DNA of 57,902 bases, taken from IMG/VR virus record IMGVR_UViG_2811995276_000001; one strand, 5' to 3'. Shown piece by piece: positions 38,688-45,600 of the stretch. The translations under genes and the position numbers were made by a program. The notes below the pieces were generated by a model, which saw only the letters and a list, made by a program, of their open reading frames with translations, was not told where the DNA came from and did not search any database. Positions within the stretch are counted from its first letter, which is position 1. Each line of letters opens with the position of its first letter. Source of the DNA: a virus. Lineage: Duplodnaviria > Heunggongvirae > Uroviricota > Caudoviricetes.

Positions 38688-40493
38688 CTATATAATTGAT
38701 TTAGGCTTTCTAATTGTGCCGAACATTTTGAAGTTTGTAGTTTTTGTGGAGTGTTGTAGGTTTCGTTCTAATTCAGTTGCTAGTTGATTTCCATAAGACA
38801 CTGATGAGTACCTGTCTTTACGTGCAGTACCAGAGGTAACAAGTTTGAATGCTCCACCGTCCATATTAACTTGTTCAAGGTTCATCACTTCATTTATAAA
38901 CAATTCCGTTTGTCTAAATGGATATTTTAATTGAGCTTGAATATTGCTTTTCAGTTGTGCAAATTTAAGTTTGCTGCTACTTCTCATTAATTCTTCAGCA
39001 ATTTCTTCTCGTATCAGTAATCGGAATTTACCTCGTAAAAAATTGTCGGCTAACATATTAGCCATTTCCATGTTTCTTTCATTAGTTGCGCTAATTGTAT
39101 GTATTACTTTCGGTGCATCAGGAAATTTACATGTAGATGCTAAATCTTCGTTATTGCAAACATTTAATGGTTCATATTCTATACCTCTTTCGGCATCCAT
39201 TAACGGAATGCGAAGGTTATCTAGAATACCTGCTCCGACGTTTTTCAAGTCAAGTACGATGTAATCGCAATCAAAATCATCGTATAATTGTCTAATCCTT
39301 ATTGCTTGGGTTTGGAAGTCAACACCTTCCATATCTTGCATATAAGTTAATTGTCGTTCATATTGCTTATTTTTGGGTATTAAGCGTATTAAACTGAATA
39401 CTGAAGCATCGTTTGAATTACCACCCATTCGTGCAACGTCAACCGATAAAATTCTTTTTTCTTTTGGTGATTTCTCTGGGTTAGTGAAGTTAACTTGTTC
39501 GATCACTTCACGAGGATAAAAAGCTTGCTTAAGTTTTCTATTCGCATCAATCTTGTTAAAGTTAAAGAATGCGGATTCTGATTCTCCCCACCATTTAGCT
39601 TCCATCTCCATTGCAAATTTCATTTTATTAAATCCATCTTGCTGAGCTTCTGCTTTCATTTGTTTGTGTGAGTAAAGCTTTTCTTTCACACCTGTAAAGT
39701 AGGGGATATGACAAACAAAAGATTTTAAGTCATCTTTAGCTTTATCCCTTAACATTTGTTTTGTATAGTTCCACATGGCTTGATAACTCCAATGAGCTTT
39801 CATCCAAGCTGAAGATAAATACATTTGCATATTTTCTTCACGAGGATAATCTTTATACTCAGGTTTGTTTAAAAATTTAGGCTCACGCTGAGATGTAAGC
39901 ATCTTTTTGAAGACGGTATCAATTGTATCTGCATCAACTTTTACAAACTCATCAACTAATAATAAATTCGCACGATGACCTCGAGCGTTATCGTTTGATG
40001 CTACAACTCTGATCCAACTACCATTATGAAAAGATATCATTGGCTTTTGGTTTCCAGTATTTATATCTTCTATCTCTCTAGCAAGAAGAGGAGACATCAT
40101 CTCATTCTCTATTTTTTCAAGAACATTAATACCTTGTGATTTTGTTGGGGCTGTAATAATTATTTTGGTTTCTGGGTATAAAACACATCTAGTAACGCAA
40201 TAAACGCCAGATAAGAAGGTCTTTCCAAGACCACGACTAGCAATGAATACAAAGTAGTGGTGATGTATCATTGCCCATAAAAGTACACATTGAAATGGTC
40301 TAAGGTTTATGCCTAAAAAATCTAATACAAATCTATGTGGGTTTTCTCTATAATAAGCTATCCAAATTGCAATATTTTTCATTGCCAAAACTGACTTAGA
40401 TTCTGTTTTTCGGTGATTACGTCTGAGTTTAAATAGATTCACTTTATGATGATATTGACTTCTGTGTGTGCCATCATTTGTACTAAATGCCAT
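38688..40493 (-). CDS. terL: Terminase large subunit
   Basis: Walker A ASRGLGKT, Walker B LLLVDEF, nuclease motifs LSVDVA and KDRYSS. Confidence 0.95.
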   Translation of the reverse strand: MAFSTNDGTHRSQYHHKVNLFKLRRNHRKTESKSVLAMKNIAIWIAYYRENPHRFVLDFLGINLRPFQCVLLWAMIHHHYFVFIASRGLGKTFLSGVYCVTRCVLYPETKIIITAPTKSQGINVLEKIENEMMSPLLAREIEDINTGNQKPMISFHNGSWIRVVASNDNARGHRANLLLVDEFVKVDADTIDTVFKKMLTSQREPKFLNKPEYKDYPREENMQMYLSSAWMKAHWSYQAMWNYTKQMLRDKAKDDLKSFVCHIPYFTGVKEKLYSHKQMKAEAQQDGFNKMKFAMEMEAKWWGESESAFFNFNKIDANRKLKQAFYPREVIEQVNFTNPEKSPKEKRILSVDVARMGGNSNDASVFSLIRLIPKNKQYERQLTYMQDMEGVDFQTQAIRIRQLYDDFDCDYIVLDLKNVGAGILDNLRIPLMDAERGIEYEPLNVCNNEDLASTCKFPDAPKVIHTISATNERNMEMANMLADNFLRGKFRLLIREEIAEELMRSSSKLKFAQLKSNIQAQLKYPFRQTELFINEVMNLEQVNMDGGAFKLVTSGTARKDRYSSVSYGNQLATELERNLQHSTKTTNFKMFGTIRKPKSII

Positions 40494-41383
40494 TACTTTT
40501 CACCTTCATATCCCAAAAGTTCTTCTTCAGAAATACCATATTTATCTATTTCTTCTTGATATTCTTCTTCATATGGGTTATCAGCTTCAAGTGATGCTAA
40601 CATTGGAGACAAGAATGAATTGCGAATGTATTTTTCAATATTATCAACATCTTTAAACTCAGGTAATACTTCAGGAACTGGTTGCTCATTTTCCCATATT
40701 TTAACCCAGTTTCCAAAGGTTTCATTAGCATTAGTTTTACTTTCTTTTTCTTGTGAAGGGGCAATACCTGCATTCCTCATTAGTTCTAAAATAAGTTTTG
40801 TTTCTTTAGATGTGTCTGACGATTTTAACCGTTTTTTGCGAATATCGAGTTCTAATTGGCATATTTGTGTTACTATACTTTCAAACGTAGGGCTATCCAC
40901 ATCATACGTTTTACAGTAGCTTTCATACCTAGAAATTAAAAAGATATATTCATCTTCAGTGTAGTCAGTACCCCAATATAGTTGACAATCTCTTAACTCT
41001 TCAGGGGTCAGTTTATCTATCGAATCTTCAGTAAGCATTGCTTCTTTTGTATTAAATAATCTGTCTGAATCGAGGAAAGTCTCTTGTAGTTTTTTTCTCG
41101 TAATGCGATTTATGTATTCTGTTCTATATCTATCTACTTCAATAAACAAATCTTCTTTAAATGGGACATTTAGACCCATAAGGATTTTCATAAAGTTTCC
41201 GTAACCTTCAATAGGTTCATTGATCAATTCATTTATACATTCACGACAAATCGGAAACAGTTTATCTTTGAATAATGGATTTGATCCGTTGATTGATAAG
41301 AAATTCTTTCTTTCAGCTACAAGATTGCGATTGCAACAAGCACATGTCTTAACAACTTCTTTCATTTTTGACCTTATAGCCAT
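40493..41383 (-). CDS. Putative terminase small subunit with N-terminal Cys motifs (YonG-like)
   Basis: CACC...CREC; overlaps the terL start by 1 nt. Confidence 0.6.
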   Translation of the reverse strand: MAIRSKMKEVVKTCACCNRNLVAERKNFLSINGSNPLFKDKLFPICRECINELINEPIEGYGNFMKILMGLNVPFKEDLFIEVDRYRTEYINRITRKKLQETFLDSDRLFNTKEAMLTEDSIDKLTPEELRDCQLYWGTDYTEDEYIFLISRYESYCKTYDVDSPTFESIVTQICQLELDIRKKRLKSSDTSKETKLILELMRNAGIAPSQEKESKTNANETFGNWVKIWENEQPVPEVLPEFKDVDNIEKYIRNSFLSPMLASLEADNPYEEEYQEEIDKYGISEEELLGYEGEK

Positions 41384-41399
41384 ATAGCCACCTGCTTTG

Positions 41400-42110
41400 C
41401 TTTAATCTTTGTTCGGTGGATGAAGGAAGGAGAGGGAAAGGGGGAGCCTTCATCCAACCAACAAAAACACCGACTACAATTGAGTCGGCATAAAAAGGGA
41501 ATGTCATGGAATAGAAAAAGAAAGAGAGCACATAAGCACTCAAAACTAAGCTAGTTTAATAACTAACTCAGTTTTCAATGTTTATAAATAATTTAATAGA
41601 TGCCATGTAACCAGTAACTTCAAGCATCTAAAGTATGTAAGTTTTCTTAAAACTGGACTTCTCACTGATGCGTCCATAAGTGAGAGTTATCTTAGTACGT
41701 CTACCTTGATAACTAAATTCAACTTATACATAACAAGACAAAATGGTCGCCATTAATAATTGACGCATAGAATATCAGCTTAATATTCCCAAAATTATCT
41801 TATACATTTGTATAAGCTTAACTCGGCTCTATTACATACATAACAGAGCTTACAAACGTAAAGTTTATTTCCTTTAAGACGCTTTGTTATAACAAAATGT
41901 ATTAATATCAAAATGGTTGCCCCAAACTTCCTATCTTATAAAGATAGCTAAGAAACGACCAACTTCTAGGCATTTGAGCTCTTTATAATCATCTAAGCCA
42001 ACTGGTCTAGTTGTAAAGTACTTAGAGATAACCATTTTGAAAATTTTATCCCCTCATATCAGAACGTGTCTTTTAAAAAAGATGAGGGCGCTGCCGTAAA
42101 ATATACTAAA
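41400..42110 (-). ncRNA. Candidate large structured non-coding RNA or late-operon leader
   Basis: 790-nt gap without a credible ORF, more than 12 helices and several long-range pairings. G-U wobbles work only on the minus strand. Boundaries are approximate. Confidence 0.65.
41463..41489 (-). terminator. Putative intrinsic terminator upstream of terS
   Basis: gccgact-caattgt-agtcggt followed by gtttttgt on -. Confidence 0.55.
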
Positions 42111-42173
42111 TCAACTAAAACTTTTTGGGGTCATTCTCTGAGAGTTAACCCATATGATCCAATTATATTTGTG

Positions 42174-43382
42174 TTAGTTAAAGTTAATTAACTTAACAGA
42201 ATGGTTTATACCACCTAGGATTGACTTTTCAAAAGTTATTAATTTTTGTCCAGCCTTACCTCCAAATCTACCTGAAGCACTATAAGCGTCATGACCGATA
42301 GCACTAGGATTAACAATTACGGTGGTTATACCAAAATTCTTTTCAAAAGAATGATGTGTATGACCTAAGAAAATCCATTGAGGAACGTAATTAAGCATTT
42401 GACTTAATTTGTCTGAGCCGTTAAGCTGCTTATCTAAATCGCCATGGCCAAAAATAACACTTTGGTCAAAGATTTGAGCTTCAACGATTCCATCTTGGTC
42501 ATCATGATATGTAATATTTTCAAAGTTAGATAATCTTGCTTTAAGGTGCCATGAGATTATCTTCTCAAAATTCTCTTCGTTAGATCTTACGGCATCCTTA
42601 TTAGGAATTAATCTTCCATGATTACCTACGGTGAAATATACGTTAACATTAGGTGTAATTGCTGCTACTTCTGATACAAATTCTGTTAACAATTCACAAA
42701 GTATCATAAGCTGTCGTATAGCATCTTCAGAAGCGGCTACACGACTAGATACATGAATGTTTCCACCGATACCGTCACCTAAATGAGCTAAGTGTACAGT
42801 TTTATGTTTATTTTCTTTAATTTCTTTTAAAACCTCAGCCATATAATAACGTATTCGTTTTTTCGCAATGTCGATATTATATTTGCCGAAACGTCCATCG
42901 TATTCAGTGCCAATGTGCCAATCCGACATTAAAACAATTAATTCTTTTTCATTAGACTCAATAATTTCAGGCTTGGGATATGATGGATTAACAGGTAGGG
43001 CTTCAACATTCTTAATTATTTCATCTTTAAGATGTTCAAATCGTCCACTAAAATCTAAAAGCTTTCGATATTCTCTTCTTTGATCTTGAAGCATCTTAGT
43101 AATAGCACGATTTTTTTCATTCATTTTGATTTGCTCTTTAGTGAGCTCTTCAATAAATTCTTCTGGTTGGGTAGCTTGATGTTGTTCTTTAAACATAGGC
43201 TCCCAAACATTTTTAAATATCTGATATTCTTTTCTATATTTTGATTCATCATAGTCAGTACCATTCTCATGATTTAGTAAATCAGCAATTTGTTGATTAC
43301 TTAAGCCAAGTGATTCTCTGTCTTCATAGAGGCGGTACTGATACTCGGCAAATGACTCATTTTCTTTACGAAACATATTCAT
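42174..43382 (-). CDS. Calcineurin-like metallophosphoesterase with N-terminal HTH-like region (YonJ-like)
   Basis: SDWHIG, LGDG, GNHG, GHGD and GHTH motifs. Confidence 0.85.
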   Translation of the reverse strand: MNMFRKENESFAEYQYRLYEDRESLGLSNQQIADLLNHENGTDYDESKYRKEYQIFKNVWEPMFKEQHQATQPEEFIEELTKEQIKMNEKNRAITKMLQDQRREYRKLLDFSGRFEHLKDEIIKNVEALPVNPSYPKPEIIESNEKELIVLMSDWHIGTEYDGRFGKYNIDIAKKRIRYYMAEVLKEIKENKHKTVHLAHLGDGIGGNIHVSSRVAASEDAIRQLMILCELLTEFVSEVAAITPNVNVYFTVGNHGRLIPNKDAVRSNEENFEKIISWHLKARLSNFENITYHDDQDGIVEAQIFDQSVIFGHGDLDKQLNGSDKLSQMLNYVPQWIFLGHTHHSFEKNFGITTVIVNPSAIGHDAYSASGRFGGKAGQKLITFEKSILGGINHSVKLINFN

Positions 43383-44003: not shown

Positions 44004-44118
44004 ATTATGTTATATTTTATCTTTCTTAGAAGAACTAAAAGGGAATCTCAACGATTGTAAGTAGTCCTCTCACCTATATTGTCTACGAGAGAAGCAAAAG
44101 TTGCACGTATCACAAGAT

Positions 44119-45600
44119 TTATTGATTTTTTCTATTTCTACATGCTTTACAAACTGGTTCTAAACCCAAGCTGCAAGACTTGTTAGTTCTAAAATATCTG
44201 TTATCAACTGCAAGCTTCACAGTTTTACACTGTTTACAAGTTTTATACTTTCCTTTTCTTCTTTCAATCCATATCCAATCCTCTAATTGTTGCTCATACG
44301 TATCCAGAAGTAATTTTGGAATACGTTTATTAATTATCCTAGATAGTTTTGATTTATCAATAGCAATATTATAATCATCTTGTAAGATTTTTTGTATTTC
44401 AGTATGCTTATCAATTTCTTGATTCAACATTAAATCAATAATTATGTATTCAAGCTTATCCCATTTAACTTTTTGCACCAAATCTTCAAAGCTCCTTAAT
44501 AGAGACCACATATTAGTGTCAACTTGTGTCTCGTATGTAGCGCAAAGATCACTATAGTTGTTTAATAATACTTTGTACACATCAGTTGATCGTAGGCTTA
44601 AATAATTCCAAGACTCTTCAGGTATTGTTTCTGATAATTCAGCTGTAGGTGTAAAACTAATAACTTTCTTTAAGCATTCTAGCGATGTTCTCATTTCGCT
44701 TTTTAAGTTAGAAATAACCTTCCCTCTATTTGGAGTAAATGGCTGTTCCTCTAAGTATTGTATCTCTTTTAGATATTGCTTCATTATTTCAAATGCAAAC
44801 GTTTTGTATTCAATAGGGTCATGTGAGTAAAATGGGATATTATTTCTTTTATCAGGGGAGTAGCGTTCCCAGTATTGCTCCATTGATTCATCAAATACTC
44901 CTCGTTGCATTTGTTTATCTACTCTTGAATAATTGATAGTTGTTTTAGGTTTATACATACCACTATCGTTCGCAATTGCATCATCTATACTTTTAATGTT
45001 GTAGTGCTTAGGCAAACTTGAAAGCCGTTTAGTTTTTGAGTAAGGTGTATTCTTTCGCTGTGCTTTTTTAAATTCTAAGAGGTCTTTGATTTTTTCAGTT
45101 TTCTTACTTGCTTCAAGTTTCTTTAAGTCTTCTTTTATTTTTTTATGCTCTTCTTCTTGGATTTCGTTATCGAATTTTGTAAATAGTATATAATCAGCAA
45201 TTTTGTCTAACGTTTTAGTAAATCCACTATCTTCAGACAATGGGCTAGTAGTTGATTTAATTTGTTGAGAAATAAACTGATGGTCACTTACGATCTCAAT
45301 CATAGCACTTTCATCAATTCCTTTAGCAATTGCTTCTACTCTTTGTTCTCCATACTTTAGGGAATAATTACAACAGTTCATAAACTGTCTCCATATTTTA
45401 CGCTTTTTATTATCACGCTCAATCTTAAATGGAATTGGTTTTGCTTTTTTAATAATCATCCATGTATATTCGTCTAATCTACGAATCTTAATATATTTTT
45501 GAACCATGATGAATTCGCCTTTTTTTAGATTAGTTAATTCTTCTAATTTATATCCTAGCTCTTCAGCTTTTGTATTCATGTTTTCTTTTGTAATAAACAT
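44119..45600 (-). CDS. Hypothetical protein with a C-terminal HTH-like segment and Cys-rich (Zn) tail; possible late regulator
   Basis: HTEIQKILQDDYNIAIDKSKLSRIIN, then CKQC...C...CKAC. Confidence 0.6.
   Translation of the reverse strand: MFITKENMNTKAEELGYKLEELTNLKKGEFIMVQKYIKIRRLDEYTWMIIKKAKPIPFKIERDNKKRKIWRQFMNCCNYSLKYGEQRVEAIAKGIDESAMIEIVSDHQFISQQIKSTTSPLSEDSGFTKTLDKIADYILFTKFDNEIQEEEHKKIKEDLKKLEASKKTEKIKDLLEFKKAQRKNTPYSKTKRLSSLPKHYNIKSIDDAIANDSGMYKPKTTINYSRVDKQMQRGVFDESMEQYWERYSPDKRNNIPFYSHDPIEYKTFAFEIMKQYLKEIQYLEEQPFTPNRGKVISNLKSEMRTSLECLKKVISFTPTAELSETIPEESWNYLSLRSTDVYKVLLNNYSDLCATYETQVDTNMWSLLRSFEDLVQKVKWDKLEYIIIDLMLNQEIDKHTEIQKILQDDYNIAIDKSKLSRIINKRIPKLLLDTYEQQLEDWIWIERRKGKYKTCKQCKTVKLAVDNRYFRTNKSCSLGLEPVCKACRNRKNQ

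Follow-up and report, generated by a model that had tools for sequence, protein, structure and literature searches.

What does a phage keep in a gene-free spacer of 790 nucleotides (nt) at the head of its virion genes? The question is raised by the IMG/VR record IMGVR_UViG_2811995276_000001 (Caudoviricetes), whose 57,902 nt, hereafter the window, are part of a staphylococcal SPbeta-like prophage. The spacer lies between a yonJ-like exonuclease gene and a yonG-like gene for a putative small terminase, and a reading made from the letters alone (the sequence-only reading) had proposed that it holds a giant, pseudoknot-rich non-coding RNA, either free or acting as a cis-acting leader of the ~41-kb virion operon. 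Our analysis indicates, with a probability of about 0.6, that the spacer is a modular RNA island in its minimal version, combined with a gate at the head of the virion genes. The sequence-only reading had correctly recognised a structured, non-coding feature at the RNA level on the minus strand at this position; its single giant RNA gave way to a mosaic of separable modules, of which relatives carry different subsets.

The spacer is non-coding, because none of its open reading frames (ORFs) is kept in the relatives. All six small candidates are interrupted there by stop codons at homologous places, so that a conserved small ORF filling the gap was rejected and the earlier description of a ~790-nt gap without a credible ORF stands.

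Homologous spacers were gathered from ~20 loci (L numbers below; genus genomes bear G numbers). They comprised the GenBank relatives S. epidermidis SPbeta-like phage, PhiSepi-HH3, S. haemolyticus SPbeta-like 2 and Mammaliicoccus phi116, together with the genus genome G025 and contigs encoding YonG homologues 46–99% identical to that of the window. In every relative fetched, the interval between the yonJ-like and yonG-like genes spanned 0.7–2.8 kb and was nearly gene-free, with an occasional single inserted gene (for a glycosyl hydrolase, a 371-aa protein or a 140-aa protein). In RNA-sense coordinates (q = 42174 − x, where x is the window position), iterated nhmmer and BLAST searches delimited the blocks E (q60–297), D (q296–355), B (q459–575) and A (q591–769), and nhmmer showed that ~15 related SPbeta-like phages of staphylococci and Mammaliicoccus retain their order. 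No relative had a homologue of block C (q357–456) or of the first 60 nt. Module A was the only one present in all of them. The window's spacer was the second shortest of the complete gaps compared, only that of L026 (712 nt) being shorter. Window coordinates of all features are collected in Table 1.

The folding of the spacer is strand-specific. On the minus strand the whole gap reached −211 kcal/mol against −172 ± 6.6 kcal/mol in dinucleotide shuffles (z = −5.95), and on the plus strand z was −2.42, each value being based on 20 shuffles only. In 200-nt sliding windows, minus-strand z ranged from −3 to −8 across 41300–41900 and was ~0 in the flanking coding sequence. Every helix listed by the sequence-only reading exists where it had been placed, and the unusual helix density that it reported is borne out by the count of local perfect stems of at least 6 bp, which was 26 where shuffles gave 12.5 ± 3.6. 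Its 19/20-bp hairpin comprises 16 Watson–Crick pairs, three G-U pairs and one mismatch on the minus strand and has four mismatches on the plus strand, in agreement with the orientation deduced from it. RNAalifold consensus energies gave z = −14 (E), −9 (B) and −40 (A) against column-shuffled alignments, and the antisense consensus folds were about half as strong as those in the operon sense. G-U cells outnumbered A-C cells by 62:6 (A1) and 63:2 (A3), an excess that argues for RNA, or at least a single strand, of operon sense and not for a double-stranded DNA site.

The distant pairings behind the term "pseudoknot-rich" fared differently. Distant complementary 7-mers and 8-mers in the gap occurred at chance frequency (25 observed against 23.4 expected from shuffles, and 5 against 6.5, respectively), and the partners come from module C, which is not conserved, or from the loop of D, a GAAA tetraloop in most relatives; the three long-range pairs were accordingly rejected as evidence. 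The 14-nt palindrome, through which the RNA had been suggested to multimerise, is probably incidental. It was rejected as an operator or dimerisation site, being unique and unconserved, and eight perfect 14-mer palindromes occur within the 58-kb window, whose A+T-rich sequence makes them common.

Module E is a multi-stem domain. A covariance model (R1) built from ten sequences detected it in at least 12 relatives, including L031 and L046, on which it had not been trained, and, weakly, G025; a search of 86 genus genomes with R1 found nothing else, and E had no match in Rfam. Stem P1 has a different sequence in the relatives and is equally complementary there. In the alignment 92.8% of cells were paired, with double-sided changes in 31 of the 40 pairs (22 of 40 already in an alignment made by MAFFT only). 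The covariation score was 0.49 against 0.19 in shuffles, none of 500 reaching it, and at most 0.145 when the partners were slid. The hairpin just 3' of the yonJ-like stop codon runs with its 3' side into a 5' extension of E that is common to L033 and G025.

Module B consists of two halves. In the first, the stems of hairpins B1a and B1b covary among the relatives and the loops carry a conserved RGACGYAU motif. The second contains hairpin B2, in which a variable stem of 6–8 bp closes a near-invariant loop of 18–20 nt; the stem had at least eight sequence variants among 15 distinct sequences, was 93.3% paired and had double-sided changes in 34 cells, compared with 9.2 in shuffles. The B2 loop and the invariant segment CCAGU...AACUU upstream of it are complementary and may form either a pseudoknot or an alternative fold, a pairing beyond the reach of covariation because neither side ever varies. 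A search of IMG/VR with the B2 motif pattern returned eight contigs, five of which were S. epidermidis-type SPbeta-like phages already among the relatives. B2 was rejected as a sigma-A promoter: the arrangement TTGTCA-17-TATGAT fits the Mammaliicoccus lineage only, and the would-be hexamers vary around an invariant interval between them, the opposite of what promoters show.

Two further conserved stretches were seen in relatives at the start of the gap. Module G, a hairpin with covarying stems that the window lacks, lies within the first 50–180 nt after the yonJ-like gene in L027, L028–L030, L022, L002, L036 and L037, and its loop (GAUACGUCU) is complementary to the B1 loop ~0.9–1.4 kb downstream. 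L026 (3880–3950) and L034 (1720–1790) have a different stretch, GGCAGARGC...UCUGACUGUUG, directly after the yonJ-like gene; it had no Rfam match, and its carriers are without a clear module E (none in L026, marginal in L034).

Module A, the leader of the yonG-like gene, gave a consensus fold of −57.9 kcal/mol (RNAalifold, 15 sequences) with double changes in 26 of 47 pairs, including those of hairpin H3 and of the stem of T1. H1, the 19/20-bp hairpin extended at its base, is kept in all aligned relatives with many compensatory and U-G/C-G changes. H2 shares its 5' arm, GAGUG, with H1, where it belongs to the 3' arm; formation of one hairpin thus competes with that of the other at the H1 base. 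T1 has a 9-pair stem (four G-C) and a 7-nt loop followed by TTTTTGTT; it was found in all 15 aligned relatives, with a fully compensated stem in L034 and L044, and its G+C-rich stem-loop and U tract are those expected of a Rho-independent terminator, as which it would act. H3 showed up to eight double changes per pair, and its base pairs the T1 U tract with a downstream AACAAAA. Compensatory changes, strand specificity and absence of coding, which generally characterise structured non-coding RNAs, are thus combined in E, B2 and A, and the conservation and covariation of stems in homologous spacers that the sequence-only reading had looked to were found in these three.

Three terminator-like hairpins occur in 5 kb, all on the minus strand and all inside the gap. 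The recurrent 15-bp phage promoter motif is not in the gap; it occurs at 44009 (minus), upstream of the HU gene. A scan found no good sigma-A promoter in the gap, the stretch from the yonJ-like gene to module E contains neither a promoter nor a convincing terminator, and no promoter between T1 and the yonG-like ATG was recognisable by eye or scan. The spacer would accordingly be read on the minus strand as the untranslated part of a transcript starting upstream of the HU, yonK and yonJ-like genes. This RNA would fold into the separate modules E, D, B and A, with module C and the first 60 nt as phage-specific filler that connects them. H1 would compete with the weak terminator H2, and T1 would stop most polymerases ~80 nt before the first packaging gene. 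Since H3 pairs with the T1 U tract, it would form in read-through RNA only, displaying its C/U-rich loop next to the ribosome-binding site. Conservation, strand, secondary structure and lack of coding are shown by the sequences, whereas we infer that the spacer is transcribed, that T1 acts as a gate and what E, D and B may do; a stop at T1 followed by H3 would make entry into the ~41-kb virion operon depend on read-through or antitermination at T1. The RNA-level selection on H3, together with its need for the T1 U tract, would imply that read-through transcripts are the functional virion mRNA. The part of the earlier proposal that concerned a cis-acting leader is upheld insofar as a terminator leader precedes the first packaging gene in all relatives examined; this leader would control the virion operon.

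The slot is regarded as an RNA island because GOLLD, drum and transfer RNAs (tRNAs) occupy the homologous intervals of sister phages. At the Rfam gathering level, GOLLD was found in the slot of two sister loci (L027, 235.7 bits; L042, 219.7 bits), and tRNA-Asn, -Pro, -Tyr and -His in that of sister phages; drum RNA occurred in the slot of L002, L034, L036, L037 and L038 (60–77 bits). All these matches were on the operon strand, and in the relatives the tRNAs, drum and GOLLD are positioned between modules B and A. In the window B directly abuts A, and the phage has lost, or never had, such cargo. No Rfam family matched the gap when the whole window was searched at the gathering level, and a search of 41200–42400 at E ≤ 10 gave noise only (best 22 bits against a threshold of 80; IS605-orfB-II 20 bits against 88). 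GOLLD (RF02032, gathering score 150 bits) was absent from the window and, at E ≤ 10, from 41200–42400; ROOL had no Rfam match in the window or in any of 20 related loci, drum (RF02958, threshold 43 bits) was not found in the window, and neither ARAGORN nor RF00005 detected a tRNA there. The earlier idea of a GOLLD- or ROOL-like RNA therefore applies to the slot, which holds GOLLD in L027 and L042, and not to the spacer of this phage. Within the island, E and B would be stand-alone structured RNA domains that probably act in trans as phage RNAs, in the manner of the RNAs next to them in sister phages. Matches to rli28, a Listeria small-RNA family, were also seen at 86–91 bits in L036 (4052–4239), L038 (4052–4239) and L039 (4053–4234), antisense to the operon and between tRNA-Pro and module A.

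We consider it doubtful that E, D, C and B, with or without A, are instead one large ornate RNA of a new class, 450–700 nt long here and up to ~1.4 kb in relatives with the 5' G hairpin, held together or multimerised by loop–loop contacts like GOLLD and ROOL, which assemble via kissing loops (10.1101/2024.12.08.627333). We find it just as unlikely that G (in relatives), E, D and B are domains of one undescribed RNA of this kind, with contacts between B1 and G and between B2 and its upstream segment. The conserved blocks do keep one order and one strand across lineages, and GOLLD itself sits in the same slot of sister phages. The B1 loop (AGACGUAU) has a perfect complement of 8–9 nt in the G-hairpin loop near the gap start in L027, L028–L030, the S. 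epidermidis type, phi116, L036 and L037; the changed loop of the window's B1b, GACGCAU, is matched by AUGCGUC in module C (41762–41768), and the complementarity of the B2 loop to its invariant upstream segment would suit the same architecture. Against this, the module subsets differ among relatives, with 100–900 nt of unrelated sequence or protein genes in between. Neither side of the loop–loop complement varies among the relatives, which leaves no true covariation. The G hairpin is not present in the window, and chance alone would yield a 7-nt match within 790 nt.

How polymerase would pass the terminators bears on a second alternative, in which E or B is a cis-acting processive antitermination RNA of the HK022 put or Bacillus EAR type that carries polymerase past D, H2 and T1. 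The arrangement of structured domains upstream of three same-strand terminator-like hairpins in a very long operon would suit it, and so would the lack of YonO, which transcribes the SPbeta late genes, since the host polymerase must then pass T1. T1 is universal, whereas several relatives lack E and several lack B; in many relatives B is separated from T1 by tRNA genes, GOLLD or protein genes, and no known antitermination RNA was matched in Rfam, all of which makes this explanation improbable. A YonO-type polymerase as the cause of terminator tolerance was rejected: no YonO homologue was found in the phage genome, and the 493-aa protein encoded in the yonO slot is unrelated to YonO and matched no Pfam family.

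Several observations weigh against the island-and-gate interpretation itself. E is missing from about a third of the relatives (L026, L027, L042 and L044, and at most marginal in L034) and B from L034, L042 and L044, so neither can be essential for late transcription. The covariation of E was counted on a model-fitted alignment and among relatives that are not independent of one another. The ~160 nt of module C and the first 60 nt, being without homologue, may be plain filler. We infer the gate at T1 from anatomy alone; neither a promoter nor an antitermination factor was identified, and no alternative fold preventing T1 was found. T1 could merely end an RNA-island unit, with the virion operon starting from an unrecognised promoter.

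That filler could also extend further. Much of the spacer would then be decaying sequence left after a deletion of cargo, with only the terminator and the ribosome-binding region functional, as suggested by the abutment of B on A where relatives hold cargo, the lack of homologues for module C and the first 60 nt, and the shortness of the gap. We give this little credence, as lineages whose YonG is only 46–74% identical to that of the window still conserve E, D, B and A, and compensatory changes maintain the stems, which indicates selection on structure and not decay. It is highly improbable that the hairpins act as DNA (a pac site, a replication or priming signal or a single-stranded DNA hairpin element): a conserved block does immediately precede the putative small-terminase gene, at which several related Clostridioides phage records begin, and the variable stem and invariant loop of B2 resemble nick-site hairpins, but SPbeta packaging starts between yonR and yonP, ~10 kb away (10.1101/2021.11.22.469490), G-U exceed A-C cells by ~10–30:1, unlike in double-stranded DNA sites, the neighbours in the slot are all RNA genes on the same strand, and T1 has a canonical U tract.

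Within the modular island, module D has relatives of its own. Its 22-nt motif is near-invariant, and the stem of its hairpin differs by lineage yet stays paired, with G-U pairs in the operon sense only. The same element forms the 3' end of chromosomal Abi_2 (AbiD/F-like) genes in the genomes of nine other staphylococcal species (L054, L057 and L060–L066, around position 1501), where it stays near-invariant even if the Abi_2 proteins are only 66–72% identical. The chromosomal copies share with phage D the 22-nt motif and the hairpin that follows; they differ in having a U tract, which is missing from the phage copies, and no Abi_2 gene or remnant was found beside the latter. On this evidence the chromosomal copies look like the terminator of the Abi_2 gene, and D could be a regulatory RNA element of this defence gene that the phage has copied; a further possibility is that D serves as a decoy copy of the host's abortive-infection RNA element. 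An Abi_2 pseudogene in the gap was rejected, as tblastn found just 11 residues, overlapping the motif of D.

Elsewhere, a group II intron (group-II-D1D4-3, 144.5 bits) was found ~340 nt downstream of the D terminator in G002 (L006 965–1136, minus), and in G065 the D element lies 12–60 nt from contig ends (L005 and L012). Class C group II introns insert after terminators, and both observations fit a multi-copy intron that does so.

Table 1 Features of the spacer and its flanks in window coordinates.
Feature	Position	Strand	Details
yonF-like large terminase gene	38688–40493	minus	
yonG-like gene, putative small terminase	40493–41383	minus	phrog_3314; Pfam YonG_N in identical locus L025
Gene-free spacer	41384–42173	minus	790 nt; ORF list; 0 genes called in identical locus L025
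Shine–Dalgarno sequence and yonG-like ATG	41388–41395; ATG 41383	minus	after H3
Module A, leader	41384–41589	minus	~190 nt; in all relatives aligned
A-H3, long hairpin	41409–41464	minus	20-nt C/U-only loop 41427–41446; alignment columns 176–203/254–273
A-T1, canonical intrinsic terminator (predicted)	41462–41489	minus	GCCGACU/AGUCGGU and U tract; ~80 nt upstream of yonG-like ATG
A-H2, short hairpin, weak terminator-like	41526–41541	minus	followed by a U-rich run
A-H1, 19/20 hairpin of the sequence-only reading, extended at base	41533–41584	minus	alignment columns 16–38/65–87
Module B, second half	41597–41656	minus	invariant CCAGU...AACUU 41639–41656, then hairpin B2 41597–41631 (loop 41604–41623)
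Module B, first half	41660–41714	minus	hairpins B1a 41685–41714 and B1b 41660–41685
Module C	41718–41817	minus	no homologue; 6-bp hairpin 41770–41788; weak terminator-like hairpin 41748–41765
Module D	41819–41878	minus	22-nt motif 41850–41871, then 9-bp hairpin 41826–41849
Perfect palindrome, 14 nt	41883–41896	none	single copy in genome; missing from the relatives' alignments
Module E, multi-stem domain	41894–42052	minus	~160 nt; covariance model R1, 102.7 bits
E stem P1, 11-bp closing helix of the sequence-only reading	41908–41918/42030–42040	minus	
E stem P3, inner hairpins	including 41931–41937/41941–41947	minus	
E conserved unpaired segment	41979–41988	minus	UUAUAAAGAG
E stem P2, apical hairpin	41999–42003/42009–42013	minus	5 bp
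Hairpin just 3' of yonJ-like stop codon	42051–42088	minus	7-bp stem 42051–42057/42082–42088
yonJ-like exonuclease gene, upstream flank	42174–43382	minus	
493-aa protein in yonO slot	44119–45600	minus	matches phrog_5767, labelled "sigma factor"

Upstream of the gap, the yonJ-like gene is accompanied by yonK, the HU gene and the 493-aa gene in the position of SPbeta yonO. A search of the genome contigs with the YonG-like protein as query gave a single distant, irrelevant match. In three relatives, terL is in pieces that flank a LAGLIDADG_3 endonuclease ORF (L027 5397–6578, L034 5394–6598 and L035 3230–4434), which suggests an intron or intein.

Islands of phage tRNAs and large RNAs are already known, and the structured modules described here have no Rfam entry. 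The clade offers a natural series at one fixed slot, from GOLLD through drum with tRNAs to the framework only, as in this phage, and the minimal 790-nt version is small enough to be deleted, swapped and probed in an inducible staphylococcal lysogen. This makes testable both the late-gene switch of an SPbeta-like phage without YonO and the purpose of the RNA cargo slot. Apart from this, the resemblance of D to the element that ends host Abi_2 genes offers a clue to the interplay of phage and defence.

Among the closest known systems is SPbeta, of the same phage lineage, with the gene order HU, yonK, yonJ ... yonG, yonF. Its late operon also begins with an unannotated non-coding RNA upstream of yonK (PMC5467207), and a long non-coding RNA stretch inside or at the head of the late transcript would be common to both. 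In SPbeta, however, it is yonN and yonK that flank the long gap, and the yonJ–yonG interval is occupied by yonI and yonH. The two showed no sequence similarity, and the window phage is without the YonO polymerase. A DUF3800-VIII RNA motif (47.5 bits; L021 6410–6475, minus) was seen in the 1.7-kb unannotated gap between SPbeta yonK and yonN, where the YonO-dependent late transcript reportedly begins with non-coding RNA.

In layout, the spacer recalls lambda pR'-tR' with Q, HK022 put and Bacillus EAR. Neither a Q-like protein nor a qut site nor any similarity to put or EAR was identified here, and the analogy is one of layout only: an intrinsic terminator stands immediately upstream of packaging or virion genes, with structured RNA upstream of it in the same transcript.

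Islands carrying GOLLD, ROOL or drum RNA are a further close comparison. The window's spacer fits none of these models at E ≤ 10 and contains no tRNA, its modules are far smaller (60–190 nt each), and E, B and A are unrelated in sequence to the GOLLD-bearing stretches. GOLLD and ROOL typically lie near tRNA islands in phages and prophages (PMC5737381; 10.1101/2024.12.08.627333). Like them, the spacer belongs to a Firmicute prophage, is hairpin-dense, large and without an assigned function, and occupies a gene-free slot on the operon strand, which in sister phages holds GOLLD, drum and tRNAs.

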